From the IMG/VR virus record IMGVR_UViG_3300020463_000019, positions 2,293 through 66,292 of that record: 64,000 bases of DNA; one strand, given 5' to 3'. The DNA is from a virus. Below are positions 19,001-63,696 of the stretch, piece after piece; within the stretch, counting starts at the first letter, position 1; the number at the start of each line of letters is the position of its first letter. A program made the position numbers and the translations under genes. Under the pieces are notes generated by a model. The model saw only the letters and a program-made list of their open reading frames with translations, did not search any database and was not told the DNA's origin.

Positions 19001-22000
19001 GTTTTGTTCGTGTAAACGAGAAAGTCACTGGACATAAAGTTCTTGTAGAACAAGATGATAATATACAAAACTTGTGGAGCATTTACCAATTAAACACAAA
19101 CAAAACTTGGACATTGATTAAATTACAAAGTTATGATGTAACCACACAATGGGGATATGCAGATTGGTATGCTACTGGATATGATGCAACAACATACATC
19201 AAGTATCAAGTGGAGTTAGTTAAAGACTTAGTTGATGTTATACCAGACGCTGGCGATGTTGTAAGAGTCAACAACGGCGGAAACTGGGAGTTACATCGTT
19301 GGAACGGTGTTGAATATGTTATAATTGCTATAAAAAATGGAACTATTGAACTAGCAAATAGTTTGTATGACTATTCAGTAAGTCGTTATGGTTACGACAG
19401 TGAAGTATTTGATTTCCAACTTTACGACCAAGAACCACAGATTGAAACTAGAAAAATTATTGAAACTGTTTATTCTAACATTTTTACAGAGTCCCTTACA
19501 ATTGAAAACAATCGTATTTGGACAAAGATGATGTATTACATACTCGACGAACAACCATTTGTTGATTGGTTATTTAAGACAAGTTTTGTAAGTGTAAATC
19601 ATAAAATTAGAGCGTTAGATGCGTTACCGTATTATCGTAGAGATAATCAGGATTATGTTAAAGACTTTATTAGCGAAGCAAAACCTTACCATACTAAGAT
19701 TAGAGAATATGTATTAAACTATAATAAGACTGATCCGTATGATGGTGATGTAACTGACTTTGATGTACATAGTTATTATGATACAGAAAACAATTATTAT
19801 CGTAAGCCAAACAGCAGAGACGGTGATGCAGATTTATTAGCGGCCGGTGTTAATATTCCGTTTAATGAAAATTATACATTTGAAGTAGGTGATATTACAG
19901 TTTATGATGGCGGCTCAGGTTATGTAACTGCACCAGCAGTCACTATTAGTGGTGGCGGCGGCAGTGGTGCTGAAGCAACCTCAACTATCACAGACGGAGG
20001 AATAGTAAACTCAATTACAGTTACTAAGCCAGGTACAGGATACACTAGCACTCCAACAGTAACAATAGCCGAAAGCACAGGCACTACAGGAACAGCATAT
20101 GCTAGATTGACAAATGCAAAAGTTCGTACTTTTGATACAACTATGAAGTTTGATAGAACTCTTGAAGCAAGTAATACTGCGGTTACTATAGAATCAATTT
20201 ACAATATACCAAGTGAATCTAGAACAAGGGTATCTGAATGGAGCCCTGGTGTTACATATCTTGCAGGAGATGTTATTAAGCGTTCATACACAGTAACTAG
20301 AGAGCCTATTAGAGTTGATGTTATTAACAATATTATTGGAAGTAGAGAAAGTGTAACTATTGATATTGTCGAGGAGTATTTTGTTCCAAAGGCGTATACA
20401 AGTTCAACTAGTATTCTACATGATCTAAATCAAAATAGATTGGTAAAAATTGATCCAAGTCTTAAGTTTGGTAGAGTTAAAAATACAAGTGATATTTTAG
20501 ATTGGAAAGCAAATACAAGTTATTCATTAAATGACGAAATTAGTTATCAAGGTGAGGCGTATCGGGCAACTGAAGACTTTACAAGTGGCCCTACATTTAC
20601 AAGTGATAGTCTAGTAGTCATTGCTGATGAAACTTTTGAAAATGCTATGGATCGTACAATGGCGTTTTACCAGCCAACCACAACACAGGCCGCAAGAGAA
20701 TTAGAAAATATTTTCAGTGGAATTGAATATCCAAATAATAAAATATTAGGTCCTGGATTTGATCTCGAACCTGGATTTGGACGTAGTGGATTTGATGCTA
20801 TTCCTTATGATAACTTTGAGATTGGTGACGAAGGTATTGCAATGCTTAGTGGTGTTGTTGATACTACTATCACTGCAAGTAATATTCAAATAAGTGGATT
20901 AGAACTTGAATCAGGATCTTATATTAAATTTGATTATGTTGAACCTGGCTATGCAGAAAATACTACTGTGCTTGTTGAAGGTGTGACAGTTGCAGACGTA
21001 CTAAGAAATAGATTTGGTGACTCGTTACTGGGAACACAACCTGACGATATTGATATTACCGGTGGAAAATTTGTAGATCAGTTTAGTTCGCATTCCACCG
21101 AAGAAACAGTTCCAGGTCGTGTATTTGATAGTTTGGATATGGAAGTATACCAAAGTCCAAGTAGTATTGTAGGCAATGAAGGACTTAGTCCAAGAATTGA
21201 TATTATCAAACATGCTGGTGATGGCAGTACTACCAAGTTTAGTTTTGTGACTTCTGATTATAGACACAATATGAACTTACTAGTTTACACAACTCAAACA
21301 GGTAAAGTACAACCAGATGAGTATACAGTAGATTGGACAGACTTTACAATTAATTTTGTAACTGCACCAGCGTCAAATGATATTGTTGATATTATCAGTA
21401 TTGGTAACACTGGTGAAAACATGGTGTTGGATACAGTTTACACAGGAGACGGAAGCACAAAAGAATTTATCTTACCAATCAATTATTCATTAGCAAAACA
21501 AAGTCTTGTTATTATGGATGGCGTTAAAACTGCCCACACTATTACTGAACAAAATAGTAGTAGAGCAGTTTTAAATTTTGCTACTGCACCGGCAGTTGAT
21601 AAGCACATACATATTTTTATTTTCAACTTAGATCCAACAGGCGATATAGCATACAGTCATGTAGCACAAGAAATGTTTACAATGGATGGAAGTACTCGTA
21701 CATTTACACTTGCACAAGAGCCATTCTATGATGCTCCAACTGATGCAAAAGTTTATGTAGAATTATTAGAAGCAAGATTACGTCCAGCGGTATATACATA
21801 TTTTACTGGCGATGGTGCAACAACTACATATACATTAACTTCAAATGCAGATATAGATCATAGAGCAATAACTGCATCAGATATAAGCGTATTTGTTGGT
21901 GGTGCAAGTAACAGTGCCTGGACATTAGACGCTGATGATGGAAGTAGTGCAAGAACAATAACATTTACTACGGCTCCAACAAGTGGATCAAGAATTGCTA

Positions 22001-23025
22001 TTGGTGATAATACCAATGCAGAATTTACTATTTCAGGTAGTAATATAACACTTGATAGTGGACTATCAATTCCAACAGGTGAAAAATTAAACGTAACTTC
22101 ATTTAGCAATCATGATGCATTACAAATGACGGCAGAAACATTTGTAGGACTTTCAACAGGTGAAGTAACACTGAAGATGGGTTATGGTGTCGACAGATTT
22201 GACACAATTGGATATGATGGAGATGACTTCTTGGTTGTTAATAGTCCTTCATATACATTATTTGTAACACCAGAAAATATTAATTACTTGTGGGTTACAT
22301 TGAATAGTGTTAGATTAAGTTTAAACACTGACTATGAGATAGACAACGATAAACTATTGATTAAACGTGCTATTACTGGTACTGATGTACTCGTTGTTAA
22401 TCACTTTAGTGAGAACACAATCAAACATAGAATTGCATGGAGAATGTTTAAAGATGTAGTAGGATCTACTAAGTTCTTCCGTATGATTGATGATGCTACA
22501 ACTGAGCTTACAAAGAAACTTAGTAAATTAGATGTAGAAGTTCATGTAAAAGACGGAAGTAAACTTGCAAAACCAAGCGTAGCACAAAACCTTCCAGGTG
22601 TTGTGTTTATTGGTAGTGAAAGAATTACATATTGGGAAATAGATGGCAATATACTAAAAAATATACGTCGTGGAACTATGGGAACAGGAATTCCATTTGC
22701 ACACTACAAAGGCGATCAAGTTATTGACACAAGCGAACGTCAAACAGTTGAAGACGGATATAGTAGCGTTTGGTATGAAGATATCAATGCTGATAGTGCA
22801 ACTACCACACTTACTGCTGATTATGGTGATAATGTAATTACAGCAGATAATGATAAGGAAACTAACTCAAGTACAACCAGTTTACAGTATCAAACAACAA
22901 AACAAGCCAACTTTTTGAACCAATTTGTTGGTACTATACCAGAAATTAGTGTTGCATTTGATCAATCAGGTAGGTATTTAGCAAGTGGCTATGTACAAGA
23001 TAATTACGTTTTAATTAACGAATAA
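10054..23025 (+). CDS. Giant (4323 aa) baseplate wedge/receptor-binding structural protein
   Basis: Coupled to gp6. FG-GAP-like propeller repeats (~16450-17970: FGSSVAI, FAVGAPG, FGESIA, LVVGSP), CBM5/12-like '[20 protein letters not shown]' repeats and several 'GDGST..F' Ig-like repeats. Confidence 0.7.
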
Positions 23026-49963: not shown

Positions 49964-50174
49964 ACTATCACTGCGTGAACAACAAAAAGAATGTGCTAGA
50001 GCCTTAGCATCTATGAGTGCTACCAACAACAATATTCATCAATTCAACAAACAAGCACATCACAATAGTCACAACTGGTATTCTGCAGTCATTAACTGGT
50101 ATGTAGAACAGTATGGCGACTTACCCTCAAAGACTGGACCAGGACAAGAAGTTAAGTTAATCTTGGACAACTAA
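49950..50174 (+). CDS. Hypothetical protein
   Basis: 74 aa, TTG start, coupled to the next gene. Confidence 0.5.
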   Translation: MELDKLSLREQQKECARALASMSATNNNIHQFNKQAHHNSHNWYSAVINWYVEQYGDLPSKTGPGQEVKLILDN

Positions 50175-51100
50175 TGATTAATAGTATTACTACTGACGTT
50201 CCGAGCAGTTTAGATATTGAATGGGTAATCAACAATTACTGCAATTTTAATTGTAGTTATTGCACTCCTGACTTATTTGGTAACACTAGTAGAGCATTAG
50301 ATTTACCTATAGCAGTTGAGTTTTTTAACACAGTACATCAACAACATCCAGGAATAAAAATGCTAAGTCTCAGTGGAGGAGAACCTACACTGTGGAAGCA
50401 TCTACCTGAGTTTGTTGATAGTGTAGCAAGTAACTACTTCTTTCATATTATTACCAACGGTAGTAGAACGCTTGACTGGTGGCGTAGATTCATGTATAAA
50501 AGAAAGATAGACAGGATAACAATAAGTTTACATGTAGAGCAAATTAATTTTGATAAAACATTTGCCAATATAGAATTTTTACAAAACCAAACAGACTTAA
50601 CTTTATTAGTATTACTAAAGCCTGGGTCAAAGGAAATACTAGAACAATTTGTAAAACGTATAACTGATGCAAAAATAAATGCAAGTATAAAAATAAAACC
50701 ATTAACCTCGCATGATAATAGAAGTGTGTACAACTACAACAAAGACGAAAAATCATGGTTACAACACTTTAGTTACAACAAAGCAAACATAAATTCCTAT
50801 AGTGGTATTGCTAAAAGACTTATAGTTGATGGCAAAGAGCATAGCATGAGTTATGCTTACAAACTAGTTGCAGGTGGATTAAATAACTTTAGAGGTTGGA
50901 ACTGTAACTTAGGAAGTAGCCGAATGTTTATTTGGCACGATGGAAATGTGTTTCCTGCTACATGTAAAACTGCTATGGCAAGACCGATTGGCAATGTTTT
51001 TTCTAATACGTTAGAAGTTAAAACATCAAGTACAAGATGTGCTGATGAGTTTTGTCATTGTGCACCTGATATTAGGATTACAAAAAGTAGAAATGTATAA
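50174..51100 (+). CDS. Radical SAM enzyme with C-terminal Cys cluster
   Basis: CNFNCSYC, SGGEPT, TNGS; C-terminal C..C..CADEFCHC. Confidence 0.85.
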   Translation: MINSITTDVPSSLDIEWVINNYCNFNCSYCTPDLFGNTSRALDLPIAVEFFNTVHQQHPGIKMLSLSGGEPTLWKHLPEFVDSVASNYFFHIITNGSRTLDWWRRFMYKRKIDRITISLHVEQINFDKTFANIEFLQNQTDLTLLVLLKPGSKEILEQFVKRITDAKINASIKIKPLTSHDNRSVYNYNKDEKSWLQHFSYNKANINSYSGIAKRLIVDGKEHSMSYAYKLVAGGLNNFRGWNCNLGSSRMFIWHDGNVFPATCKTAMARPIGNVFSNTLEVKTSSTRCADEFCHCAPDIRITKSRNV

Positions 51101-52172
51101 ACTAGAAGACATAAAGCAAATACATTTAGAAGTGACACAGAAGTGTCAGGCCGCGTGTCCTATGTGTGATCGCAATATGAATGGCAAAGGTATCAACCCG
51201 CATATTGATTTGAGCGAACTTAGTTTAGAAGACTGCGAAAAAATGTTTCCGCCAGAGTTTATTGCACAACTAGATAGTATGTATATGTGTGGTAACTTAG
51301 GTGATCCTATTATAGCAAAAGACTGTTTACAAATATTCCAATACTTTCGCAAACACAACAAAGACATGTGGTTGAGTATGAACACAAATGGTGGAGCACA
51401 AATACCAGCATGGTGGGCAGGACTTGCTAGTACTCTTAATCACAGAGGTGCAGTTATCTTTAGTGTTGACGGTTTAAAAGATACAAATCATATTTACAGA
51501 CAAGGTGTAAGTTGGGACATAGTAGAACGTAGCATGAGAGCATTTGTAAAAGGTGGTGGTCGAGCAAGATGGGACTTCCTTATATTTGAACACAACCAAC
51601 ATCAAGTTGAACGAGCAAAAGCTCTTGCTATGGAGATTGGTTGCGAAAACTTTATTCCTAAGAAGACAGGAAGATTTGTTACTGCGACTACACAACCTAA
51701 AGAAGAACATGAAGGAAGCAATAGAAAAGGCACTGAGTCAATTGAGCTTAAGAAGCCTGACGATAAATATGTTAATAAAGCTCTTACTACTCAGCAAAAA
51801 TTAATTGAAAAATACGGCGACATGGACAACTACTATGACGCAGTTCCTATTAAATGTAAAGTTGCAAGTTCAGGTAATCTTTTTATTACTGCTGAAGGCA
51901 TGGCAATGCCGTGTTGTTGGACTGCTGGTCGTATGTATAAGTGGTGGCATAAAGATCCTAGAGTCGAACAGATATGGAACTTCATAGATGCACATGGAGG
52001 CAAACAAGGTTTAAGTGTAATTGAAAATGGACTACCTGCAGTATTTGACTCGGGTATATTTGACAGTATAAATGATAGTTGGAACAAAACAAGTTGTGCC
52101 GATGGCAAGTTAAAAGTATGTGCTATGAAGTGCGGTATTGAGTGGGATCCTTTTACGGAGCAATTTAAGTGA
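51093..52172 (+). CDS. Radical SAM/SPASM-like enzyme
   Basis: Start MYKLED at 51093; CQAACPMC, CGNLGDP, FSVDGL; C-terminal PCC..CAMKC. Confidence 0.85.
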   Translation: MYKLEDIKQIHLEVTQKCQAACPMCDRNMNGKGINPHIDLSELSLEDCEKMFPPEFIAQLDSMYMCGNLGDPIIAKDCLQIFQYFRKHNKDMWLSMNTNGGAQIPAWWAGLASTLNHRGAVIFSVDGLKDTNHIYRQGVSWDIVERSMRAFVKGGGRARWDFLIFEHNQHQVERAKALAMEIGCENFIPKKTGRFVTATTQPKEEHEGSNRKGTESIELKKPDDKYVNKALTTQQKLIEKYGDMDNYYDAVPIKCKVASSGNLFITAEGMAMPCCWTAGRMYKWWHKDPRVEQIWNFIDAHGGKQGLSVIENGLPAVFDSGIFDSINDSWNKTSCADGKLKVCAMKCGIEWDPFTEQFK

Positions 52173-53599
52173 TAAACAAAACTGAAGACAAAGATCGTTA
52201 CAATGATATCAGCGAAACATTCTGTGCTTTGCCATGGTTACATTTAAGTAGTAGACCAGATGGCAAGATGCGTACTTGTTGTACTAGTAATGCAAGTAGT
52301 GTACAAGATCCAGACAGTAGTAAAAAAGTAGGTGGTGGAGAAGTTGGTGTTGTAAAGAACAATGATGGCGTGCCTGCTAACTTTAATCACACAAGTTTAG
52401 AAGATGCTTGGAATAGTGACTACATGAAGAATGTACGCAAGATGATGTTGCGTGGAGAAAAGCCAGCACCTTGTCTAAAATGCTATAAGGAAGAAGAAGC
52501 AGGACATCTAAGCAAACGTAATTGGGAAACAAACTATTGGGGTAATAGATATAACTTACACAACTTAGTAGAAGAAACAGACATTACAGGAAAGATACCA
52601 CCAAAGATACGTTACATTGATCTGCGTATGGGAAGTAAGTGTCAACTAGCATGTGTCATGTGTAGTCCACATGATAGCACAGGATGGATTAAAGAATGGA
52701 ATAAAATCTATCCGCAAATAACAAATGAAAAATTAAAAAATACAAGTGCTTGGGATAACAAAGGTCGTAATGATGGTGCAAGTTATAATTGGCACAAAAA
52801 CAATCCTAAGTTTTGGAGTGACTTGTACGAACAGATTCCGCACATGTATCAATTGTATTTTGCTGGTGGTGAAAGTTTAATCATTGATGAACACTATGAC
52901 TTGTTAGAAGAATGTATTAAAAATGGCTACGCAAAGAACATTGAGTTGCGTTACAATAGTAATGCAGTTGAATGGCGTGATGACTTGTTTGACTTGTGGG
53001 CAGAATTTAAACGTGTGAGATTCCACTACAGTATAGACGCACATGGAGAACACAATGACTATATACGCTACCCAACAGATTGGAAACATCAAGAAGAAGT
53101 ATTCTGGAAGTTGGACAATACTAGTGACAATGTAGAAGTAACAACCGCTACAACTATTATGGCACTCAACGTTGGATACATTCCAGAGTTTGTGCAATGG
53201 AAAGTAGCACAGAACTTTCGTAAGATAAACAAATGGCCGTTAGGAGCAGGAGGTATTAACATGCATTTTGCTTACTGGCCACCTCAGTTAAATGTTAAAG
53301 TATTGCCGGCTGAAGTAAAACAAACTATAACAGACAAGTACGAACAAGAGTTCATACCTTGGATGATGGATAACTGGCAAAGTTTTACAGGAGTCAAAGA
53401 AGCAGGACTAACACAAGAACAATGGCTAAGTGCTCCATACGGAGTAAAAAGATTTCGTGGCATTATCAAGTTTATGAATGCAGAAGACTGGACACAACGT
53501 TTACCAGAAACAAGACAGTACTTAAACCTAGTAAACAAACAACGTGGATGGGAAACAAAGTTTCTTGAAGTCTTTCCGTTGTTCAAGGAAGTGCTATGA
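52169..53599 (+). CDS. Radical SAM enzyme with N-terminal Twitch/SPASM-like domain
   Basis: CALPW..TCC..CLKC; CQLACVMC; AGGE. Confidence 0.85.
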   Translation: MINKTEDKDRYNDISETFCALPWLHLSSRPDGKMRTCCTSNASSVQDPDSSKKVGGGEVGVVKNNDGVPANFNHTSLEDAWNSDYMKNVRKMMLRGEKPAPCLKCYKEEEAGHLSKRNWETNYWGNRYNLHNLVEETDITGKIPPKIRYIDLRMGSKCQLACVMCSPHDSTGWIKEWNKIYPQITNEKLKNTSAWDNKGRNDGASYNWHKNNPKFWSDLYEQIPHMYQLYFAGGESLIIDEHYDLLEECIKNGYAKNIELRYNSNAVEWRDDLFDLWAEFKRVRFHYSIDAHGEHNDYIRYPTDWKHQEEVFWKLDNTSDNVEVTTATTIMALNVGYIPEFVQWKVAQNFRKINKWPLGAGGINMHFAYWPPQLNVKVLPAEVKQTITDKYEQEFIPWMMDNWQSFTGVKEAGLTQEQWLSAPYGVKRFRGIIKFMNAEDWTQRLPETRQYLNLVNKQRGWETKFLEVFPLFKEVL

Positions 53600-54939
53600 C
53601 AGAACTAAACATGGATAGGTTTTGTGTTGTTCCTTTTGTGCAGTTAAACACAAGAGGCAAAGGTGATGCACGAGTATGTTGTAGTATCGATGGATTAAAC
53701 TATGGCGTACCAAAACATTTAACACTTGATCAAGTTAATCCAGATACATACAACGGCAAAGACACAGAAGTATATAACCTACAACATGATGATATATCAG
53801 ACTTATGGAACAGTGACTTTATGCGAGACTTCCGACAAAAGATGTTGGCAGGTGAATATATACCCAACTGTGAGTTTTGTTACAGAATGGAAAACAGTGG
53901 ACTTAGTAGTAAGCGACTAGGCAAGAACAAAATATTCTTAGAGCGAACACTTCCGTTCTTACAAGACTATGCAAACGCTAACGGACATGTTGACAAAATG
54001 CCACAGTGGTGGGAGATACGTTTAAGTACCAAGTGTAACCTAAGTTGTATTATGTGTGCTCCAAGTTTGAGTACTATGATGTATAAAGAATATGCAAAGT
54101 GGCGTAAGGATGGAACAGGAAGTCAATACACAAATGGAGCATTGGCTATTGCAGAAGACAGTGGCGAAGAGTTTTTAAGTAAGAGTGAGTTCTTTCGTGA
54201 TCAAGTTACAAGTAATCTGCAACATGTTTTATACATGGAGTTTAGAGGTGGTGAAGTATTTGCAGACAAAGAAAGCATAGACTTTATTGAAGCAGTAAGT
54301 TATACAGAATATGCCGCAGGCATTACGCTAGATATCTCAACAAACGCTACACTAATTAATAAAAGAGTAGTAGACATACTTAATAGATTCAAAGGTGGTA
54401 AACTAAGACTTAGTATTGATGCGTACAAAGAAGCAGATGAATGGATACGCTATCATACAGACTGGAATGCAGTAATTAGAAGTATGGAAATAATGCATGG
54501 CTTACACAACAAGTGGAAGTTCCTAACACAAACAACAGTACAATTTTTAAACTGCTTAACATTAGATGAACTAGTAGTGTTCTTTAATGATTACATTATG
54601 GAACAACGAGACGAAAGATTCTTTTTAGGATTTACAAGTGTAAGAGGTAAAGACTGGTTACGACATGAGATGGTACCTAATAGTATTCGTGAACCAGCAG
54701 TACAACGCATGAAAGAACTAAAACGCACATTACCTATATTCCAAACCAATTGGAAAAATTCAGAACAACTTAACAAAGCAATGGATCAACTTATAAGTGT
54801 ATTAAGCGATACAGAATATACAGAAGAAGCAAAAGTAGAACTTGCACCTAAAGCAAGAAACTTTTTTGAAACACTAACTAGAGTTCGAAAGAAAGATTAC
54901 TTCGAACAGTTTCCACACATTAATCAGAGTATAGCATGA
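53596..54939 (+). CDS. Radical SAM enzyme with N-terminal Twitch/SPASM-like domain
   Basis: CVVPF..VCC..CEFC; CNLSCIMC; RGGE. Confidence 0.85.
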   Translation: MTELNMDRFCVVPFVQLNTRGKGDARVCCSIDGLNYGVPKHLTLDQVNPDTYNGKDTEVYNLQHDDISDLWNSDFMRDFRQKMLAGEYIPNCEFCYRMENSGLSSKRLGKNKIFLERTLPFLQDYANANGHVDKMPQWWEIRLSTKCNLSCIMCAPSLSTMMYKEYAKWRKDGTGSQYTNGALAIAEDSGEEFLSKSEFFRDQVTSNLQHVLYMEFRGGEVFADKESIDFIEAVSYTEYAAGITLDISTNATLINKRVVDILNRFKGGKLRLSIDAYKEADEWIRYHTDWNAVIRSMEIMHGLHNKWKFLTQTTVQFLNCLTLDELVVFFNDYIMEQRDERFFLGFTSVRGKDWLRHEMVPNSIREPAVQRMKELKRTLPIFQTNWKNSEQLNKAMDQLISVLSDTEYTEEAKVELAPKARNFFETLTRVRKKDYFEQFPHINQSIA

Positions 54940-56363
54940 CTGAAGTAGATCATACCAAACACACCCGATGTCCTATACCATGGATGAGTCAAAGTTATAG
55001 AGCCAACGGAGACATTAGAGTATGTTGTCAAGCACAACATGGACCTACTGGCGGTATACTTAAATCACCAGAAGGTAAAGTATTGAATGCTCGTGACAGT
55101 GACTTAAATGAAATACGCAACGCACCACTAGAGAAAGACATCCGAAGTTCGATGATACGTGGCGAGAAACATGTAGAGTGTACACGTTGTTGGACTGAAG
55201 AAGATGCTGGTATGACTAGTAGACGTATCATAGAAAATAAACTATGGACCAAGGGCGGTTGGGATCAACTGCGTGAAGAAGACAAGTATACCTGGGACGA
55301 GTTAATGAGTTATACACAAGAAGACGGAACCATAGATACAGATGCTATTGGCAACAACTTCTTTGATGTACGCTTTGGAAACTTGTGTAATCTAAAGTGT
55401 AGAATGTGCGGTCCAACTGACAGTAGTATGTGGTATGACGAACAAGTTAAACTATGGGGCAACACATACAAAGACAGTCACGGTACTGTTACACTTGTAC
55501 CTAATGCTAAAGGCAAACATGTACCTGAAGTAAATGTTTATGACTGGCATGAAAGTAAACACTATTGGACACAAATGGAATGCATGATTCCTAATATCCG
55601 TAAGTTGTATATTGTAGGTGGTGAACCATTTATGATTGATCAACACTATGCGTTTTTGCAAAAGTGTGTAGATGGTGGCTATGCTAAAAATATCATTGTA
55701 GAGTACAACAGTAATGTAACAAACATTCCACAACGTGCTTGGGACATATGGAAACATTTTAAACGCATAGGCATTGGTGCTAGTATAGATGCAGTAGGAG
55801 ACTTAAACTATTACATACGTCCACCAAGTAGATTTGAAAAGATATGGAGCAACCTTAAAAAACTAAGTGCCGCTGAAGGTAACTTTAGAATGTGGTTGGC
55901 TACAACTATTAACATATACAACGTTTGGGTACTACCAGACATTATGAAGTTCTACATTGAGAACAACATGCCTAGAGTAAATGATGATGACTTCAAACCT
56001 ATTATGACACCACACCCATTACACGGGCCACAGTTCTTAAACATAAGAGCATTACCAAAGCCTATCAAAGATTTAATTGCTGACAAATACGAAAAGCAAT
56101 TGCCACAGGTTTATGAAGTGATTGATCAACACATTCAAGATCCTAATAGAAATCATCACAGTAAAAGACAAGCAAAACTTATATTAGAAACATACAAAGA
56201 CTTTATGTATGCCAAAGACTTTTCAGATAAACTATACAAGTTCTGGGAACACACTAACAGACTAGATAAAATACGTGGACACTACTTCAAAGATTACTGT
56301 CCAGAAATGTATGAGATGTTGTTAGAACATGCACACCCAGACTCTTGTAAGGCACCTTATTAA
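54936..56363 (+). CDS. Radical SAM enzyme with N-terminal Twitch/SPASM-like domain
   Basis: CPIPW..VCC..CTRC; CNLKCRMC; VGGEP. Confidence 0.85.
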   Translation: MTEVDHTKHTRCPIPWMSQSYRANGDIRVCCQAQHGPTGGILKSPEGKVLNARDSDLNEIRNAPLEKDIRSSMIRGEKHVECTRCWTEEDAGMTSRRIIENKLWTKGGWDQLREEDKYTWDELMSYTQEDGTIDTDAIGNNFFDVRFGNLCNLKCRMCGPTDSSMWYDEQVKLWGNTYKDSHGTVTLVPNAKGKHVPEVNVYDWHESKHYWTQMECMIPNIRKLYIVGGEPFMIDQHYAFLQKCVDGGYAKNIIVEYNSNVTNIPQRAWDIWKHFKRIGIGASIDAVGDLNYYIRPPSRFEKIWSNLKKLSAAEGNFRMWLATTINIYNVWVLPDIMKFYIENNMPRVNDDDFKPIMTPHPLHGPQFLNIRALPKPIKDLIADKYEKQLPQVYEVIDQHIQDPNRNHHSKRQAKLILETYKDFMYAKDFSDKLYKFWEHTNRLDKIRGHYFKDYCPEMYEMLLEHAHPDSCKAPY

Positions 56364-57484
56364 TGCACTATCTCAAGCCGGAAGAAATAAAATATCTACA
56401 AGTAGATCACAACAGTGGTTGTAACCTACGTTGCCCACAGTGTGCTAGAACACACAACGGTGCTACTATACCTGGCTTGAAAAATGTAGATCTAACAGTG
56501 GATCACTACAAAGACTTCATTATACACACCCCTAACTTGAATTTTATTATGTTCTGCGGTAACTATGGCGAAGTTGTTGTTAGCAAGACCTTTTTAGAAT
56601 GCCTACAATATGTAGTAGAAAATACCACTGCAAAGATAGTAATAGCCACTAACAGTAGTGCCAGAGATGAAAGTTGGTGGAAAGAGCTCGGTCTAATGCT
56701 AAAGGGTAGAGGAAAAGTTAACTTTAGTATAGACGGATTGAGCGATACAAATCACTTGTATCGTGTGAACGCAGACTTTGATAAATGTCTGCGTAACGCA
56801 CAAGCGTTTATAGATGCAGGAGGGATAGCACGTTGGGATTACTTGGTATTTGCACACAACGAACACCAAGTAGACGGTGCAGTAGAACTAGCAAAGACTA
56901 TGGGTTTCAAAGACTTTGCAGTCAAACTCACAAACCGTTTTGTCAACGACGAACAATATAGGCATAAGAAGGCAGCAAGTGAAAGTAGTAAAGTGGTAAC
57001 ACGAAAGAGTAGTTACACACTAAGCATGGCAAGTGATGCCAAGTATACTGCCAGTGGAGTAGATGATAATACCAATATCATCAACAAGTACGGCAGTTGG
57101 AACAACTATGTGAATGCTACCCCTATTAGTTGTAAGTGGCGACCCGGAGGGCAAATATTCTTAGACTTTGAAAACAGAGTATGGCCTTGTACTTGGACTG
57201 CCAGTGGATACTTGCATCACGGAGACAACACACAAAAGACACAAGCACTACAGTTGTTTGAACGCTACGGAGAAGACTTCAATTGTTTAGACAACAAAAG
57301 CCTACCTGAAGTACTTGAACATTCATACTTTGCCCGAGACTTTTGTGCTAGTTGGAGTAGCACTATGACAGATGCTGTTCCTAAGTTGTTTGCTTGTGGA
57401 AGAACCTGTGGCACAGACTACAACTTCTCTAGTGCTCATGGTGCTAACAGAAGGATACTAGAACTTGACAAACTGGCACATTAA
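56363..57484 (+). CDS. Radical SAM/SPASM-like enzyme
   Basis: CNLRCPQC, CGNYGE, FSIDGL; C-terminal C..WPC..CGRTC. Confidence 0.85.
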   Translation: MHYLKPEEIKYLQVDHNSGCNLRCPQCARTHNGATIPGLKNVDLTVDHYKDFIIHTPNLNFIMFCGNYGEVVVSKTFLECLQYVVENTTAKIVIATNSSARDESWWKELGLMLKGRGKVNFSIDGLSDTNHLYRVNADFDKCLRNAQAFIDAGGIARWDYLVFAHNEHQVDGAVELAKTMGFKDFAVKLTNRFVNDEQYRHKKAASESSKVVTRKSSYTLSMASDAKYTASGVDDNTNIINKYGSWNNYVNATPISCKWRPGGQIFLDFENRVWPCTWTASGYLHHGDNTQKTQALQLFERYGEDFNCLDNKSLPEVLEHSYFARDFCASWSSTMTDAVPKLFACGRTCGTDYNFSSAHGANRRILELDKLAH

Positions 57485-58559
57485 AGTCCTAGACCTAGAG
57501 CCTAGTACACAATGTAATGCGGCTTGCCCTATGTGTGCAAGAAGTTTTCAAGGTGTGCAGAACAAAAACGTGCCTGTTGCCAATCTTCGAGTGAGTGCAT
57601 TACAAACACTACGCCCATACTTAAACGAACTAGAACGACTGAGCATGTGTGGCAACTATGGAGACCCTATACTCAATCCACAGTTAACAGACATCATAGA
57701 CTACTGTCTCAGTATAAACTCTAGTTGCAGTACTATCATACACACCAACGGTGGTGCTAGAACAGAGAGTTGGTGGCGAGAACTAGCAGAGTATCCTTGG
57801 CTTAAAGTAAGATTTGGCATAGATGGATTAGCAGATACAAATCACTTGTATAGACGCAAAGTGCGTTGGGATATACTAGAACGCAACTATAGAGCATTCA
57901 TAGATGCTGGTGGTGTTGCTGAATGGAAGATGATAGTATTTGGTCACAATCAACATCAAGTAGAGGCATGCAGACAACGTGCAATTGATGAAGGATTCTC
58001 AAACTTCAGTTATGTTGTAACCAACAGATTTACACAAGGCAACAAGACAGTGTTTACCATGCACCCTGACGCAGACGATAGTACTCCACTAACAGCCGCA
58101 GACTTGGACTTTGATCCAAGCAAGTTCTCTGCAAGTCATGCACAAAGGGTAAAAGGTGTTTACGACACAGGTGCATACTTGGAAGAAGGCAAACAACCAC
58201 AAAGCCACAAGCCTACAGCTATACCACAGAGAAAGTTTGCTTACACAGATAGTTGGCAACCTCAACAAAACAACATAAGTTGTTATACACAACAAGAAGG
58301 AATAGTGTATGTAAGTGCGGCTGGTGACTTGTATCCTTGTTGTCATCTAGGCTATCCATATGGTGGACAAAACAAATATGATGATTTAGCATGGCTGGAT
58401 AAGAAGACTATTAACTTGTACAACAACAGTGCTGAACAAATCTTTGGTTGGTTTGATGAAGTAGAAAGACGCTGGAGTCAAAGCAACTGCTTGGGTACAT
58501 GCACTAAGGTGTGCAGTACTGAAGGCAAACCCAATCTATATGCAGTGGAAGCCTTATAA
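57465..58559 (+). CDS. Radical SAM/SPASM-like enzyme
   Basis: CNAACPMC, CGNYGDP, FGIDGL; C-terminal YPCC..CTKVC. Confidence 0.85.
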   Translation: MTNWHIKVLDLEPSTQCNAACPMCARSFQGVQNKNVPVANLRVSALQTLRPYLNELERLSMCGNYGDPILNPQLTDIIDYCLSINSSCSTIIHTNGGARTESWWRELAEYPWLKVRFGIDGLADTNHLYRRKVRWDILERNYRAFIDAGGVAEWKMIVFGHNQHQVEACRQRAIDEGFSNFSYVVTNRFTQGNKTVFTMHPDADDSTPLTAADLDFDPSKFSASHAQRVKGVYDTGAYLEEGKQPQSHKPTAIPQRKFAYTDSWQPQQNNISCYTQQEGIVYVSAAGDLYPCCHLGYPYGGQNKYDDLAWLDKKTINLYNNSAEQIFGWFDEVERRWSQSNCLGTCTKVCSTEGKPNLYAVEAL

Positions 58560-58941: not shown

Positions 58942-59418
58942 ATGAAAACATATCGTAAACCCATACCAGGACATGCACTAACACAGGTGTACAACAGTCG
59001 AGCCAACGGCAGTGACTATGAATGGAAAGAAGTGTACAAACGCTTTTACGCCTATGATCCCCGTGTAGTACAAGTACTAGATGTAGATGCTGACTATATT
59101 ATAATGGAAAGACTTGAAGGTTGGACCTTAGATGATACTGCTAAGTTGTGTGCTCTTGAAGCTCGTGAACGCAAACAAATACTACAAACTGTGGTCAGTT
59201 TACACAATAGTATGCTACAATGGAGTGACGGTTGTCTAGACGAGAGTACAGTGTGGATGCACAATGACATGGACTTGCAAAATTTTATGTATACTGACTC
59301 AGGTATACGACTGATAGATCCAGAAAGTTTTGATGTTAGAACTCTTGGTATACAACACAACAACAGTAGATATGGAAAGTTCTTTGAACTGTATGTAAAA
59401 TTGCTGGCTTATGTGTAA
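58942..59418 (+). CDS. Protein kinase-like/APH-fold phosphotransferase (minimal)
   Basis: GAGG RBS; 'IIMERLEG', 'HNDMDLQNF' catalytic loop, 'LIDPES'. Confidence 0.65.
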   Translation: MKTYRKPIPGHALTQVYNSRANGSDYEWKEVYKRFYAYDPRVVQVLDVDADYIIMERLEGWTLDDTAKLCALEARERKQILQTVVSLHNSMLQWSDGCLDESTVWMHNDMDLQNFMYTDSGIRLIDPESFDVRTLGIQHNNSRYGKFFELYVKLLAYV

Positions 59419-59426
59419 ATAAGTGT

Positions 59427-59522
59427 ATGTTGAAACCCCGTGATTATATAGCACTACACTTGTTGAACTGTGTAATAGCCTGTATAGCCATAGCACTAAT
59501 GTATGAGTGGTATTTTGGTTGA
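59427..59522 (+). CDS. 31-aa hydrophobic peptide (not in ORF track)
   Basis: MLKPRDYIALHLLNCVIACIAIALMYEWYFG; TAAATA at 59416-21, 5 nt before the ATG. Confidence 0.45.
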   Translation: MLKPRDYIALHLLNCVIACIAIALMYEWYFG

Positions 59523-59740
59523 GGCCGGTCGCCAAGTGTAGACGTTGTGGATGTGATTGCCACTGTAGTGAGGATGTGTGTCCAACGTGTCCTAATGATG
59601 TTTGTGGTTACTGTGACTGCGAGGATCCGAAAAGGCTGTACAGCAGATCTCAAAAAAATTGCTACGCAAATCAAAGCGCCATCCTAGAAAACGGGGTCGA
59701 GGTTATTTTCCCACCCCACCCCTGCCAATTTCAGAAATAA
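59507..59740 (+). CDS. Cys-rich metallothionein-like peptide
   Basis: CRRCGCDCHCSEDVCPTCPNDVCGYCDC (10 Cys in 28 aa); start uncertain (GTG 59507 or TTG 59519). Confidence 0.55.
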   Translation: MVFWLRPVAKCRRCGCDCHCSEDVCPTCPNDVCGYCDCEDPKRLYSRSQKNCYANQSAILENGVEVIFPPHPCQFQK

Positions 59741-59760
59741 AAAAACTTTTTTCACTTTTC

Positions 59761-59792
59761 GAGGTTGACAGTTTCTTATACTGTGCTATATT
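59761..59792 (+). promoter_or_regulatory. Sigma70-type (early) promoter, copy 1
   Basis: GAGG-TTGACA (59765-70), 16 bp, extended -10 TGcTATATT (59787-92). Confidence 0.7.
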
Positions 59793-59844
59793 AATATTAT
59801 AGTTAAACAAAAGGGGAATAGGTAATATGACATAGCAAAAGAAA

Positions 59845-60079
59845 CGGTTTGGGATACTGGTTGCCATAAGAACTACAGTATCGGGATTTACAAGAGTGGT
59901 AGCTCTCAGGGAATCAAAGACCGAAATATAGAAACTACCCAACCTAGTCATAGGGGGCACAGCTCGACTAGGTTGCATGAATTGAGAAGCCCCCTACAGT
60001 ATAGAAGATACACAATAGTTACCTGAGGCTTATACACGTGGAGCGAGTAGGGCGGACACTGTGTATCTCCTATACTGTA
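59845..60079 (+). ncRNA. Putative structured non-coding RNA(s) with pseudoknots
   Basis: Several perfect or near-perfect inverted repeats and loop-distal pairings (see findings); no credible ORF; directly downstream of a promoter. Confidence 0.55.
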
Positions 60080-60082
60080 TTA

Positions 60083-60114
60083 GAGGTTGACAAGACTTTT
60101 ATATGTGCTATAGT
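60083..60114 (+). promoter_or_regulatory. Sigma70-type (early) promoter, copy 2
   Basis: GAGG-TTGACA (60087-92), 16 bp, TGcTATAGT (60109-14), then AAGGAG RBS for 60144. Confidence 0.75.
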
Positions 60115-60143
60115 ATACATATAGTTAGAAACAAGGAGTTGTT

Positions 60144-60524
60144 ATGTTTGTAGATGTAAGTAAGCAAGAACTAGAAGATGAGTTGTTCCTAGAAGCAGTT
60201 GATCATTATAACAAAATGAAAGCTGAACTTGGTATGGTTAGCCAGTGGGACATACATGTAGGCAACGGTATGTTTGCTGCTGATGACTGCTTGTTGCAAA
60301 GTGACAAGCAATACAAAGTCACTTATACATATATTGAAAGCATGGGCGACACCATGGATGATGTGCAGTGGGCAGAGGTAAGTATGTTTGCTCCAAGTGG
60401 TAGTATAAAGGATTTATGGTTTGCCGCTGATAGTTGTATTAGGCAGAGTGGTACACACCATTCATACATAGAAGACTTTGAAATGCAGGAGGACGGAACA
60501 CTTGCTCTTGTAACAGGAAGTTAA
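60144..60524 (+). CDS. Acidic hypothetical protein (likely early gene)
   Basis: 126 aa, strong RBS, own promoter. Confidence 0.65.
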   Translation: MFVDVSKQELEDELFLEAVDHYNKMKAELGMVSQWDIHVGNGMFAADDCLLQSDKQYKVTYTYIESMGDTMDDVQWAEVSMFAPSGSIKDLWFAADSCIRQSGTHHSYIEDFEMQEDGTLALVTGS

Positions 60525-60530
60525 TAAACA

Positions 60531-60594
60531 AAAGGGTGACGACTAGCCGGGGAAAACTAAAGGCGTAAAAGTCCCAACCTAGAGTACACCCTTT
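60531..60594 (+). other. Intergenic imperfect stem-loop
   Basis: AAAGGGTG/CACCCTTT outer stem with inner CTAG/CTAG and GGGA/TCCC pairings. Confidence 0.5.
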
Positions 60595-60614
60595 CCAAGT
60601 AGAAGGAATTTGAT

Positions 60615-61172
60615 ATGCAATATTTGATTGCTGGTAATCCTGCGTATGGATTATCTGCCGCCATTGCCGATCGCATAAGCACAGACCAATGGCACAGTAG
60701 AAGTTTCAATGATGTAGATCTAACGAGCGTAGCGAGTCAAAAGCAGTTTGCAAACGATAGTCTACTAGTAGATGTAACCATAGTAGTAAGTTGCCTCTGG
60801 GGTTATGAACAGGTTAAACTAGTAGAACGAGTAGCAAAGGCCTGGGCGGAACATCAGCACGATGGATATCTCGTAGTGCTAGGAAGTAGTGCCGATACTC
60901 CAGTTAAAGGAACTGCTTGGGGATACCCTGCAGAGAAGAAGGCCTTACGAGCATACTGTAGACAACTAAGCCAAATGAGTGCAGGCGAGAATTCACATAG
61001 ATTCCGTTGTACATACCTCTCTCCGGGTAATATGCACACACCCAAACAGGATGAGAAAATGCCAGGTGTAGTTAAACTAAATACAGCGTATGTCGCAGAT
61101 GTAATAGTCTGGTTGACAAATCAGCCAAAACATGTTAATATAAGTGAACTAACCCTGGACGCTATTCCTTGA
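60615..61172 (+). CDS. Short-chain dehydrogenase/reductase (atypical)
   Basis: 'AGNPAYGLS', 'GSS', 'YPAEK' YxxxK, 'SPG'. Confidence 0.7.
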   Translation: MQYLIAGNPAYGLSAAIADRISTDQWHSRSFNDVDLTSVASQKQFANDSLLVDVTIVVSCLWGYEQVKLVERVAKAWAEHQHDGYLVVLGSSADTPVKGTAWGYPAEKKALRAYCRQLSQMSAGENSHRFRCTYLSPGNMHTPKQDEKMPGVVKLNTAYVADVIVWLTNQPKHVNISELTLDAIP

Positions 61173-62329
61173 CAACTGACAACTATCCAAGCAAGCCGTG
61201 TGCTGCTCCTCTAACCAGTGTAGCAATAAAGCCCAACGGCCGGCTTCGCCCCTGTTGTTGGTGGACAGATGATGTAGAACCCAGACTAGAAGATCGTGGT
61301 ATAAAACAGTATATCTGGCAAGACCTCGCGGCTATGTATAAGAACATGGAAAAAGGCATATGGCCAAAAGGTTGTAACAAGTGTAATACCACACAAAAGA
61401 GTCGGTACGATCACTATGAAAGACGCTATCCTAATGCCAGAAACGAACCTCAACGACTAAGAACAATGGACCTCCGCTTTGGTACACTGTGTAATGCCAG
61501 TTGTATTACATGTAGTAGTACTAATTCAAACTATTTCTACAAAGTAAAACGGCAGGGTCTTTATCTAACACCCGAACATCAACCATTTGACAGCCAGGCC
61601 AAGATCGATGCATATGAAGCAGAACAAGATTGGTGGAAAAAAGAACGTAATATCAATGACTTATTAGAGAACCTTGACACAGTGGATCACCTCTATATAA
61701 CTGGTGGTGAACCTACTATCAATCCTATGTTTCATAGTATACTAGAACACTTACATAAACAAGGTCGAACCAAGAGTGTAAGCATAGAAATAAACACCAA
61801 TGGCACCAACCTCAACCGTCACTTTAAACAATTGGTACAACCATTTAAAAAATTAGTTCTTTTTAGCATAGATGGCCATGGAGTGTTAAACAATGCAATG
61901 CGATATCCCACCAAGTTCTCCGCAGTAGAAAAGAACATACTAGCATACAGTGATATAGATAGTGGCCTAGGTGACGAAGTAATAGTAACGCCCACTGTAT
62001 GTGTGTTTAATTTCTTTGAATTAGTCAAGTTATTCGACTGGTGTGCGTTCAACAACATAGAAGTAACCCATCAATTGAACGTTCTTAATAGGCCAAGATG
62101 GCAAAGTTTGAGTCAATTACCTGACAATCTACTACAGCAAGGATTAACACAGTTGCGAACCGCCGGCTATGATCACCATGCAAACACTATACAGAGTCGT
62201 ATACAGGGTGTGAGTTATGAAAAAGATCTTTTATTAACATGGGAGGATACTAAAAAGCGTACACTACAGTGGTTTAACAGTAGACAGTTTAATCCAAGTA
62301 TTACAGGAATACCAGATATCAATGCGTAA
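61169..62329 (+). CDS. Radical SAM enzyme with N-terminal Twitch/SPASM-like domain
   Basis: CAAP..PCC..CNKC; CNASCITC; TGGEPT. Confidence 0.85.
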   Translation: MTTDNYPSKPCAAPLTSVAIKPNGRLRPCCWWTDDVEPRLEDRGIKQYIWQDLAAMYKNMEKGIWPKGCNKCNTTQKSRYDHYERRYPNARNEPQRLRTMDLRFGTLCNASCITCSSTNSNYFYKVKRQGLYLTPEHQPFDSQAKIDAYEAEQDWWKKERNINDLLENLDTVDHLYITGGEPTINPMFHSILEHLHKQGRTKSVSIEINTNGTNLNRHFKQLVQPFKKLVLFSIDGHGVLNNAMRYPTKFSAVEKNILAYSDIDSGLGDEVIVTPTVCVFNFFELVKLFDWCAFNNIEVTHQLNVLNRPRWQSLSQLPDNLLQQGLTQLRTAGYDHHANTIQSRIQGVSYEKDLLLTWEDTKKRTLQWFNSRQFNPSITGIPDINA

Positions 62330-62574
62330 AACACCCATCAAATGTGAAATAAACGTGCCAACCGTGTTGTATGAAGCTACAAAGCGTGTTAACGGTGCAT
62401 ATAGAGCGGTTATCAACTGTTTCCAAAGGCTTTCAACCCCGTCGTCCTCATCAGAGAACCATGGTTTTAGAAAAATTTTCACACCTTTGTCACTTAGTGT
62501 TTTAATTCATATTATACTGTATACACTGTTGTTTTATGCTTATTAATGGATATTAAAGGAATCTTTATTGTAGT

Positions 62575-63696
62575 ATGGCTTATCATAGTTTAGATAGTAT
62601 CATAGACATGCATGTAGAAATATCAAATAGATGTAATGCCGCTTGTCCTATGTGTGCTAGAAATGATTTCGGCGGTGCTACTAAGAGTGATCTACAGTTA
62701 GATGAATGGACTACCGCAGATATTGATAGCATCTTTACGGGTGAACATTCAAACTTACAAAACGTTATGTTTTGTGGTACTCATGGTGATCCTTGTGTAG
62801 CAAAGAATAGTTTATATGCAGTAGATACTATCAAGAACAAGTATGATGCTAGTGTAGAGTTCTACTCTAATGCTAGTATGCGAGACAAAGAATGGTGGGC
62901 TAACTTGGGTAGTTTACTCAATAATAAGTATCCGCATCACACGCATTATAGACGTAATGACTTGGCTATCTTTAGTATAGACGGATTAGAAGATACCAAT
63001 CATCTATATAGACGCCGTACAAATTATAAAAAGATAATAGAGAATGCTAGTGCTTTTATAAGTGCTGGTGGTATTGCCCGCTGGGATTTCATAGTGTTTA
63101 AACACAATGAACATCAAGTTGAACAGGCTGAACACATAGCAAGTGAACTAGGATTCAAACAATTTAGAGTGCGTAAGACTAGCCGTTTTGATTATTCACC
63201 GGACGGTCCAGATAAATGGCGAGTAAAAGATAAGAAAGGTAACATAGAATACTACATAGAACCACCCAGTAAAAAATGGCGTAACCCCGAGAGCAACAAA
63301 TTTGTTGCATTAAAAGCGTCCCACGGGAGCATTGAGAACTACTACAATGTTGCACCCATTGAATGTTTATATAAAAATGAATTTAAAAGAATATATGTAA
63401 ATGCATATGCCAAAGTATATCCTTGTTGTTATATAAGTGATGATAGTTATCCACACAAAAATGCCATATATAAAGATACACAGGCTAAGATCTTTTCGCG
63501 TTGGGGCGACGAATTCAACAGTTTAAGAAGCAATAGTTGGCAGGAAATATTGGATCATGAATGGATGAATGAAGAATTAGAACGCAGTTGGGGAACCAAT
63601 CTAGCAGGAGGTAAACTAATGCGTTGTGCTAGAACTTGTGGAAAAGGTTATTCACCAATTAAATCGCAGAGCACGGATACAGTATTAAATGGATAA
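62575..63696 (+). CDS. Radical SAM/SPASM-like enzyme
   Basis: CNAACPMC, CGTHGDP, FSIDGL; YPCC..CARTC. Confidence 0.85.
   Translation: MAYHSLDSIIDMHVEISNRCNAACPMCARNDFGGATKSDLQLDEWTTADIDSIFTGEHSNLQNVMFCGTHGDPCVAKNSLYAVDTIKNKYDASVEFYSNASMRDKEWWANLGSLLNNKYPHHTHYRRNDLAIFSIDGLEDTNHLYRRRTNYKKIIENASAFISAGGIARWDFIVFKHNEHQVEQAEHIASELGFKQFRVRKTSRFDYSPDGPDKWRVKDKKGNIEYYIEPPSKKWRNPESNKFVALKASHGSIENYYNVAPIECLYKNEFKRIYVNAYAKVYPCCYISDDSYPHKNAIYKDTQAKIFSRWGDEFNSLRSNSWQEILDHEWMNEELERSWGTNLAGGKLMRCARTCGKGYSPIKSQSTDTVLNG

Follow-up and report, generated by a model that had tools for sequence, protein, structure and literature searches.

The 64,000-nt stretch of DNA analysed here (the window) comprises bases 2293-66292 of the 66,292-bp IMG/VR record IMGVR_UViG_3300020463_000019, for which CheckV estimates a completeness of 19%. 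An element in its largest intergenic gap (59419-60143) is a member of a widespread family of structured RNAs of about 160-210 nt that occurs in uncultured marine T4-like myophages. Its members are built in the same order: a sigma70-type early promoter is followed by a leader of about 25-50 nt, a Shine-Dalgarno (SD)-like word, a very short open reading frame (mini-ORF), a spacer, a three-way junction locked by a pseudoknot (PK1) and a hairpin (P4) carrying a second pseudoknot (PK2). We are very nearly certain that the family is real and folded as described. As a whole, the observations are best explained by a real RNA family with a ribosome-read mini-ORF acting as a cis leader, to which we assign a probability of roughly 0.55. 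The family is large and covarying, combines a double pseudoknot with a conserved frame of 2-4 codons, and is abundant and cosmopolitan (75 IMG/VR contigs) in T4-like phages of two size classes, jumbo phages among them.

Fold and covariation of the RNA family

All parts of the element in the window lie on the plus strand. The sigma70-like promoter P1 (59765-59792) consists of TTGACA at 59765, a spacing of 16 nt and TG-n-TATATT ending at 59792. It scores 11/12 with its TG extension, and an A/T-rich tract lies upstream. The SD-like word GGGGA (59813-59817) is located 9 nt ahead of the ATG of the mini-ORF ATG ACA TAG (Met-Thr-stop; 59827-59835). From the stop codon an A-rich single-stranded spacer, CAAAAGAAA (59836-59844; family consensus ..A.AGUAA, conserved in the family alignment), leads to domain 1 (59845-59923), a three-way junction of the helices P1 to P3. 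Helix P1 (CGGTTT/AGACCG, 59845-59850/59918-59923) contains one G.U pair, helix P2 (GATACTG/CAGTATC, 59853-59859/59876-59882) is an exact complement with an apical part that varies across the family, and helix P3 is made up of P3a (59885-59889/59911-59915), part of the three-way junction, and P3b (AGAG/CTCT, 59893-59896/59903-59906, exact complement). The P3b loop GGTAG is exactly complementary to CTACC downstream of the junction and forms PK1 (59898-59902/59935-59939, spanning 59898-59939), with the conserved linker AAATATAGAAA between helix P1 and the 3' strand of PK1. The 10-bp hairpin P4 (exact complement CAACCTAGTC/GACTAGGTTG, 59940-59949/59966-59975) has a 16-nt loop, in which TAGGGGGC is the exact complement of GCCCCCTA (59951-59958/59989-59996); this is the H-type pseudoknot PK2 with the linker CATGAATTGAGAA. 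The six pairings which the first-pass annotation had listed are thus all present, five of them as exact Watson-Crick complements and CGGTTT/AGACCG with its one G.U pair.

On the window sequence alone, the case for structures beyond chance is not convincing. The region 59845-59996 folds at -40.3 kcal/mol with a z of -1.10, which is equalled by 26 of 200 shuffles, and the window contains three perfect 10-bp stems with loops of 3-30 nt compared with a mean of 2.6 in 30 shuffles. For the 286-nt unit 59800-60085 a z of -2.82 was obtained on the plus strand (1/200 shuffles) and of -3.57 on the minus strand. The minimum free energy (MFE) fold of the window reproduces the domain 1 helices.

Relatives were decisive. 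To find them, the mini-ORF frame with TAG read as Gln served solely as a multi-pattern peptide probe, which yielded no confirmed relative in IMG/VR and five loci in Joint Genome Institute (JGI) and other metagenome contigs. In these five loci AGAG/CTCT of P3b is changed to AGTC/GACT, three lineages differ in the pair beside the G5/C5 run of PK2 (A-U, C-G or U-A), and the changes in the putative frame are radical and located in loops. Because helix changes are compensatory and loop changes radical, the loci differ from the window as RNA and not as protein. Covariation exceeded all 500 shuffles already on the first four sequences. A covariance model built from the five metagenome relatives (R1) detected three distant members (78-83 bits) among 19 loci fetched via a 141-aa ORF; on the related jumbo records G001, G002, G004 and G005 it gave only a 12.7-bit non-match. 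One degenerate pattern from the P3 region matched 92 IMG/VR stretches and returned 80 loci, and an improved model (R2) run on these matched 75 of the 80 with E values from 1e-37 to 1e-12. In total the family comprises 80 matches with 57 distinct sequences.

In the 57 distinct sequences, 96.5% of the pair cells hold standard pairs compared with 31-48% in slid controls, and 536 cells are changed on both sides compared with 157 +/- 12 in shuffles, a value reached by 0 of 500. An alignment of six sequences gave a similar picture, with 98.1% of cells paired (slid controls 31-44%) and 28 of 45 pairs changed on both sides (shuffled 8.2 +/- 2.1). Changes on both sides were found in all six pairs of P1, all seven of P2 and three of the four of P3b, with 85-100% of cells paired, and in all ten pairs of P4, with 99.0% of cells paired; for the nested helices it applies that they were aligned by the covariance model itself and that P3a is largely fixed by the retrieval pattern. 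Locus L100 and one public contig carry three compensatory P4 pairs relative to the window. The counts for PK1 and PK2 are independent of model fitting since neither pseudoknot is contained in the covariance models. In PK1, 99.3% of cells are paired and two of five pairs covary (UA 34/AU 19; CG 41/GC 15), with GGAAC/GUUCC as the variant in L032. For PK2, 43 of 51 sequences share a run of at least six contiguous pairs between loop and tail at the corresponding position, formed by 24 different pairs of helix strands. Its versions include GGGGCCG/CGGCCCC and GGAGGGG/CCCCUCC, UGAUC/GAUCA replaces the G/C runs in one subclass, and four of eight pairs covary on alignment A3; as expected of an H-type pseudoknot, the loop pairs with a 3' single strand and shows compensatory changes. 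The junction and linker nucleotides are strongly conserved across the family. Judged on these homologues, a chance origin of the pairings can be regarded as excluded. The earlier proposal of a promoter-driven structured phage RNA with two pseudoknots is thereby borne out by covariation: homologues were examined for a lack of compensatory changes, and such changes were found in the stems and in both pseudoknots.

That the RNA belongs to no recognised family, as had also been noted, agrees with all searches. None of the 4227 models of Rfam 15 matched the window at the gathering threshold; at E<=10 the region 59600-60200 gave nine matches, all of them at or below 19.4 bits (E>=0.83) and far under gathering. 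The five metagenome loci and 16 family loci matched Rfam tRNAs only. ARAGORN predicted 0 tRNA and 0 transfer-messenger RNA (tmRNA) genes in the window, and in related loci tRNAs and permuted tmRNAs elsewhere, never over the element. Distant-mode blastn of the window region and four other members against 50,697 cultured phage records produced no match, nor did R1 on phage Melnitz or R2 on the whole T4 genome (NC_000866, E<=10). Exact 21-, 17- and 20-mers found nothing in IMG/VR or chance matches that R1 did not score (L013-L015), and a 20-mer had four chance matches in 185,579 species genomes, none of them matched by the model. The family pattern was found in 0 of 401 genomes of the class of one alphaproteobacterial metagenome-assembled genome, a result limited to the genomes searched and not equal to absence. 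The complete 280-kb record G013 matches the retrieval pattern without an R2 match.

In public contigs covering the region, homology in other contexts begins exactly at the mini-ORF ATG, with a different SD ahead of it, and ends at about 59945-60014. Contig 12 of run X7, which is about 94% identical on both sides, carries 149 unrelated letters instead of the 152 bases 59775-59926. The exchange covers the -10 region, leader, mini-ORF and domain 1 and keeps everything from 59927 onwards (PK1 3' strand, P4 and PK2); the contig may contain a swapped or very diverged domain 1.

The mini-ORF and the absence of a longer coding frame

The ATG-ACA-TAG minigene had been noted as the only frame following the promoter. 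It is present at 59827-59835, and it turned out to be a part of the element instead of an incidental feature. All 57 contexts with enough upstream sequence show an SD-like word, ATG, one to three further sense codons and a stop 5-10 nt ahead of helix P1, the distance being 9-10 nt in 53 and 5 nt in four of them. Seven variants occur, all of which keep start, frame and stop: ATGACATAG (47 contexts), ATGCGGCGATAA (3), ATGGATTACGGATAG (2), ATGTTGTAG (2) and, once each, ATGAGGCGATAA, ATGTTATAG and ATGAAAGAACCATAG. The form with SD, AUG, one sense codon and stop accounts for 50 of the 57 contexts, and three to four sense codons are found in seven. The SD-like word at -15 to -4 is present in 57/57 contexts compared with 9.6-12.3% of 12-nt windows of the same loci, and the leader sequence beyond it is not conserved between contexts or lineages. 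A sigma70-like promoter precedes the element in 48 of 53 distinct contexts; in these the ATG of the mini-ORF follows the end of the -10 box after 22-51 nt (median 32.5). Based on this sequence conservation, the mini-ORF is a conserved part of the element and is probably translated.

A protein gene as the source of the conservation was rejected. L032 reads ATG ACA TAG CGA AAG TAA and L036 ATG ACA TAG CGA TAG TAA, and the ATG frame contains at least two stops in every member. The total length (160-210 nt) and the apical length of P2 (15-48 nt) vary regardless of multiples of three. The variable sites show neither codon periodicity nor an excess at third positions (19/13/13, 10/6/7 and 21/12/16). 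No frame is conserved: the core is read in different frames in different members, and indels do not come in threes. A small protein gene read through the TAG by recoding, or the remnant of a decayed gene, might be considered since TAG read as Gln leaves the window frame 59827-59985 open over 52 codons, TAG terminates only 4 of 50 window ORFs, and 18 of 50 members have one frame or another that runs open across the RNA. This explanation is already contradicted by the additional in-frame stops of L032 and L036, the non-triplet indels, the shifting frames and the lack of a third-position excess, as well as by the compensatory nature of the substitutions in helices; moreover, ARAGORN found no tRNA, and so no suppressor tRNA, in the window. 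We consider it extremely improbable.

Open frames of 80-91 codons run across the RNA and promoter in the window (59703-59978, minus strand, 91 aa), L050 (5581-5832, minus strand) and L069 (2126-2368, plus strand), with lengths of 80-83 aa in the last two. Such frames are by-products of composition which a gene caller could mis-annotate as spurious genes.

Public contigs also contain the promoter cassette 59763-59811 by itself, in other genomic settings. A promoter and 5' untranslated region (UTR) cassette of the type GGTTGACA ... TGnTATAnT ... ATAGTTAGA ... AGGAG is found at 59763-59811 and 60083-60125 of the window and at about 2890-2960 in L002-L004, and it recurs ahead of different genes and in other contigs. 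It resembles the mobile regulatory cassettes that have been described for T4-type phages.

Possible roles of the element

The RNA was detected once in each of four RNA-positive records that were searched in full, one of them a complete 328-kb genome with terminal repeats. CheckV completeness implies carrier size classes of about 170 kb (G006-G008, G012) and about 330-370 kb (G000, G009-G011). In the smaller class the RNA has nrdA on one side and on the other a block whose last gene, about 2.5 kb downstream, encodes a gp32-type single-strand DNA-binding protein. Its neighbours in the jumbo class are radical-SAM genes together with an AAA-type and a helicase gene. The element heads operons near DNA-metabolism genes behind predicted strong early promoters. 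In 63 of the 80 matches a same-strand ORF with its own SD starts 11-32 nt past the model end; inspection by eye adds three further members, and six are truncated where their contigs end. The ORFs represent at least ten unrelated small-protein types, most commonly a predicted membrane protein of 61-82 aa. Instead of standing alone as a non-coding region, as it does in the window, the RNA in these 63 members thus leads a small ORF from its 5' side. Any function assigned to the RNA is putative at this stage, including the ribozyme, riboswitch-like element, nuclease-resistant RNA and antitoxin mimic suggested by the first-pass annotation.

We tentatively propose, at somewhat less than even odds, that the element serves as a gene-independent, cis-acting, ribosome-engaging leader module on its own early transcript. 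Host RNA polymerase would transcribe the RNA early from the sigma70-type promoter, and a ribosome would bind the SD and read the mini-ORF. In toeprints the leading edge of the ribosome lies at about +15/16 from the first base of the P site. When ACA occupies the P site and the stop codon the A site, the spacing would place this edge exactly at the first base pair of helix P1, and therefore the folded RNA would sit at the mRNA entry of the terminating ribosome without being unwound. Ribosome and knotted fold may then jointly set the fate of the following early transcript, be it stability, read-through or translational hand-over. Both the translation of the mini-ORF and the contact of fold and ribosome we infer. 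Should the link to the ribosome be true, phages would have a new means of using or controlling host ribosomes that can be tested directly; a leader or stabiliser would still constitute a new regulatory RNA class.

A bolder and, in our view, rather unlikely version of this proposal is a ribosome-parking phage RNA, in which the double-pseudoknot body would act on a 70S ribosome terminating at the foot of helix P1. The ribosome might be handed across the fold to the next start, making the RNA a bacterial counterpart of viral shunt or internal ribosome entry site (IRES)-like devices, or host ribosomes might be held or re-programmed in trans early in infection. If true, this would define a new class of ribosome-directed viral RNA in bacteria.

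Several observations weigh against the cis leader or the fold on which it is based. Structure-blind alignment of 18 diverse members by MAFFT followed by RNAalifold recovers P3 only (nine pairs), and single-sequence MFE folds, which contain P4 in 40, P3a in 41 and P3b in 31 of 50 members, recover P2 in 27 and P1 in 20 of 50. The retrieval pattern fixes TTTACA, GG.A and CARGGAAYC (parts of P3a and the P3b loop) for 75 members, so that the invariance of these columns is by construction. A 193-nt contig from a seawater metatranscriptome run equals 59827-60014 and nothing more; it is a weak hint of transcription only, as it is shallow (depth 2.8) and could be DNA carry-over, and the run itself (X20) contained only 0.05 of the sampled words. 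No conserved pairing between the 5' leader and the 3' flank was found (mean z 0.02; z<-2 in 2 of 56), and the RNA does not in general occlude the downstream SD (median unpaired probability 0.30 with and 0.37 without the RNA). A simple stabiliser would not need so conserved a tertiary fold. Finally, at least five lineages have no ORF directly behind the RNA: a long hairpin and then a fresh promoter follow in the window and L008, a fresh promoter in L100 and L061, 144 nt and then a tRNA-Trp in L010-L012, and a long inverted repeat or hairpin in L106 and L095. The specific tests of the cis model having given little, the readings were therefore ranked in the order cis leader, trans-acting RNA, riboswitch, bar-like minigene and coding sequence.

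The isolated position of the RNA in the window lineage, where only a hairpin and a second promoter follow, makes a function of the RNA itself nearly as likely as the cis role. As a stand-alone, trans-acting RNA, the element would dock a 70S ribosome by its SD and mini-ORF. Its body would act on the side of the mRNA entry or of the factors, where it might, for instance, trap or re-programme ribosomes at termination or titrate a translation factor, and the downstream genes would merely be co-transcribed. The single copy in each of the four records searched in full, the own strong early-type promoter (48/53 contexts) and the missing tie to the identity of the downstream gene are in line with this, as are the compensatory conservation in lineages where a promoter, tRNA or long hairpin comes next instead of an ORF, the strongly conserved junction and linker nucleotides, which would be expected for a specific partner, and the metatranscriptome contig that spans the RNA alone. 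However, most members lack a terminator or defined 3' end, 63 of 80 physically form the 5' UTR of an ORF starting 11-32 nt on, and partner and ribosome binding are putative. We regard this main rival as possible, at well below even odds. A ligand-sensing riboswitch, with the junction and PK1 as aptamer and P4/PK2 as expression platform for the next gene, would account for the presence of a complex, conserved and covarying fold within 5' UTRs, and related marine phages provide a precedent with their glutamine riboswitch (PMC9004378). In six loci (L064, L065, L119, L086, L084 and L032) the unpaired probability of the downstream SD is 0.00-0.01 in context vs 0.2-0.7 alone in a pseudoknot-free model, which is consistent with a C-rich PK2 strand choosing between P4 loop and SD. 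General SD occlusion was not found, though, and the UGAUC/GAUCA class of PK2 is without anti-SD character. Since furthermore the downstream genes form no coherent class (at least ten unrelated types), members with a tRNA or a second promoter behind the RNA are hard to reconcile with such a switch, no Rfam riboswitch matched and the mini-ORF is left unexplained, a riboswitch seems improbable.

The mini-ORF would be accounted for if the element were a toxic minigene similar to bar of phage lambda, aiding host shut-off by peptidyl-tRNA drop-off or ribosome tie-up while the knot merely stabilises the RNA. Lambda bar minigenes consist of AUG-AUA-stop and are not known to carry a conserved structured RNA. 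The element resembles them in being phage-encoded and in its strong SD, two-codon ORF and A-rich surroundings (50/57 contexts); the promoter is of the early type and tRNAs are encoded near the element in some carriers. On the other hand, three to four sense codons occur in 7/57 contexts, the sense codon is not fixed where it is changed (ACA, UUG, UUA, CGG-CGA), the stop of the element precedes a double-pseudoknot fold at a fixed distance of 9-10 nt, and since a plain hairpin would be enough for stability, there would be no explanation for the conserved junctions and the two pseudoknots. It appears highly unlikely that this is the function of the element.

Apart from bar, partial likenesses to other known systems are analogies of parts or topology and not membership; this applies equally to bar, the caulimovirus shunt, gene 60, exoribonuclease-resistant RNAs (xrRNAs) and put. 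In the shunt of the caulimovirus 35S leader, a short ORF and short spacer are followed by a compact structure, a landing site and the main ORF, and the mechanism depends on eukaryotic scanning. Most members of the family likewise start with a very short ORF, from which a spacer of about 9 nt leads to a compact fold, with an SD and ATG 11-32 nt on, but their downstream genes have their own SD, and in the window copy and four other lineages the fold is not directly followed by an ORF. The bypass in gene 60 of phage T4 requires matched take-off and landing codons and a long nascent peptide. The element shares with it the T4-type phage, a sense codon directly before UAG and an RNA structure; unlike gene 60 it has no long nascent peptide and no conserved landing codon, the tails reading CCCCACA in some members and CCCCAAA in others, and the window reads ACA GTA TAG behind the fold. 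T4 rnaC and rnaD (species 1 and 2 of the tRNA cluster) are small stable RNAs of a T4-type phage, and in L010-L012 the element is found in a tRNA island; in contrast to it they are annotated beside tRNA-Arg without a mini-ORF, and R2 matches nothing in T4 (E<=10).

Flavivirus-type xrRNAs form a three-way junction in which the loop of the P3 hairpin pairs with a single strand 3' of P1. The element has the same topology of junction and P3-loop pseudoknot, whereas it adds a second, H-type pseudoknot domain and a putatively translated 5' end and matches no Rfam xrRNA. Among antitermination RNAs (HK022 put, lambda nut), put consists of two plain stem-loops and needs no ribosome. Like put and nut, the element occurs in few copies per genome, right behind an early promoter and indifferent to the following genes; no similarity to them was found.

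The RNA family is apparently undescribed and could not be assigned to any known RNA class or mechanism. Our literature search found no description of this RNA, with the limit that it may be included among the unnamed supplementary candidates of Fremin, Bhatt and Kyrpides (2023; PMC10690425), who predicted 10,006 unnamed structured-RNA candidates from IMG/VR, the data source shared with the element. The main text of that paper names only GP20 and GP32 leaders and tRNA-like classes. The Melnitz paper (PMC9004378), in the parts at hand, describes a tmRNA and the glutamine riboswitch in related marine phages and not this RNA.

Genomic context and neighbouring features

The long ORFs of the window are on the plus strand throughout. 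Its baseplate wedge protein has Sinorhizobium phage Phosso and Agrobacterium phage Atu_ph07 (35.7% identity) as best cultured relatives, followed by Rak2/PBECO4-type jumbo coliphages, and radical-SAM genes run along either side of the RNA element. Because of these baseplate wedge relatives, a 4323-aa ORF and the radical-SAM run, we assign the window to a marine jumbo myophage of the wider T4-like group. The 4323-aa ORF (10054-23025, plus strand) is located downstream of the baseplate wedge gene. Of the 24 marine or seawater runs listed, 20, drawn from ten studies, contain pieces of 59400-60600; gaps in their coverage are not informative.

Between the RNA and the next promoter the window carries a long, lineage-specific hairpin (plus strand; arms 59997-60014/60060-60077) in its MFE fold, with one A.C mismatch. 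By eye, the hairpin is retained in L008, where two pairs are compensatory and the mismatch is unchanged, and the stand-alone members L106 and L095 also have a long inverted repeat at this position. The hairpin 59997-60077 is absent from L009, L010 and most family members. It may act in 3' processing or as a 3' end.

Promoter P2 (60087-60114, plus strand), which belongs to the same class as promoter P1 (11/12 with TG), precedes the next gene, an ORF of 126 aa (60144-60524). Homologues of this ORF were found at six IMG/VR loci, in all of which the RNA is absent; blastn of the whole records L002-L006 detected no RNA homologue either, and in L002-L005 promoter and SD stand ahead of the ORF homologue with the RNA missing (by eye). 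No relative of the upstream 158-aa ORF was found in IMG/VR, and Pfam and PHROGs searches on the neighbouring genes gave no functional clue to the RNA.

The tRNA island of L010-L012 has the order tRNA-Leu, tRNA-Met, 141-aa ORF, promoter, element, 144 nt and tRNA-Trp. It spans 2132-3388 in L010 and 670-1929 in L011 and comprises tRNA-Leu(UAA), tRNA-Met(CAU) and tRNA-Trp(CCA). Directly before homologues of the 141-aa ORF, ARAGORN predicted a permuted two-piece tmRNA in L034 (2615-3017), L035 (2631-3017) and L038/L039 (2412-2948), with the tags ANENFASEDLRLAA, ANDNFASEDLRLAA and ANDNFASEELRLAA. The permuted tmRNA suggests hosts that use a two-piece tmRNA, e.g. Alphaproteobacteria.

Just upstream of promoter P1, a Cys-rich frame of 77 codons (59507-59740, plus strand) contains 13 Cys in the arrangement CxxCxCxCxC...CxxC...CxxCxC. 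It lies within a cluster of nine genes matching the radical-SAM family in Pfam or PHROGs (50174-58559 and 61169-63696), two of which carry SPASM, and could encode a precursor peptide for radical-SAM modification. The frame has no Pfam match and only GTG or TTG as start, and in a syntenic relative 59478-59628 is replaced by 236 different letters. Its start is overlapped (by eye) by a hydrophobic ORF of 31 codons, MLKPRDYIALHLLNCVIACIAIALMYEWYFG (59427-59522, plus strand).

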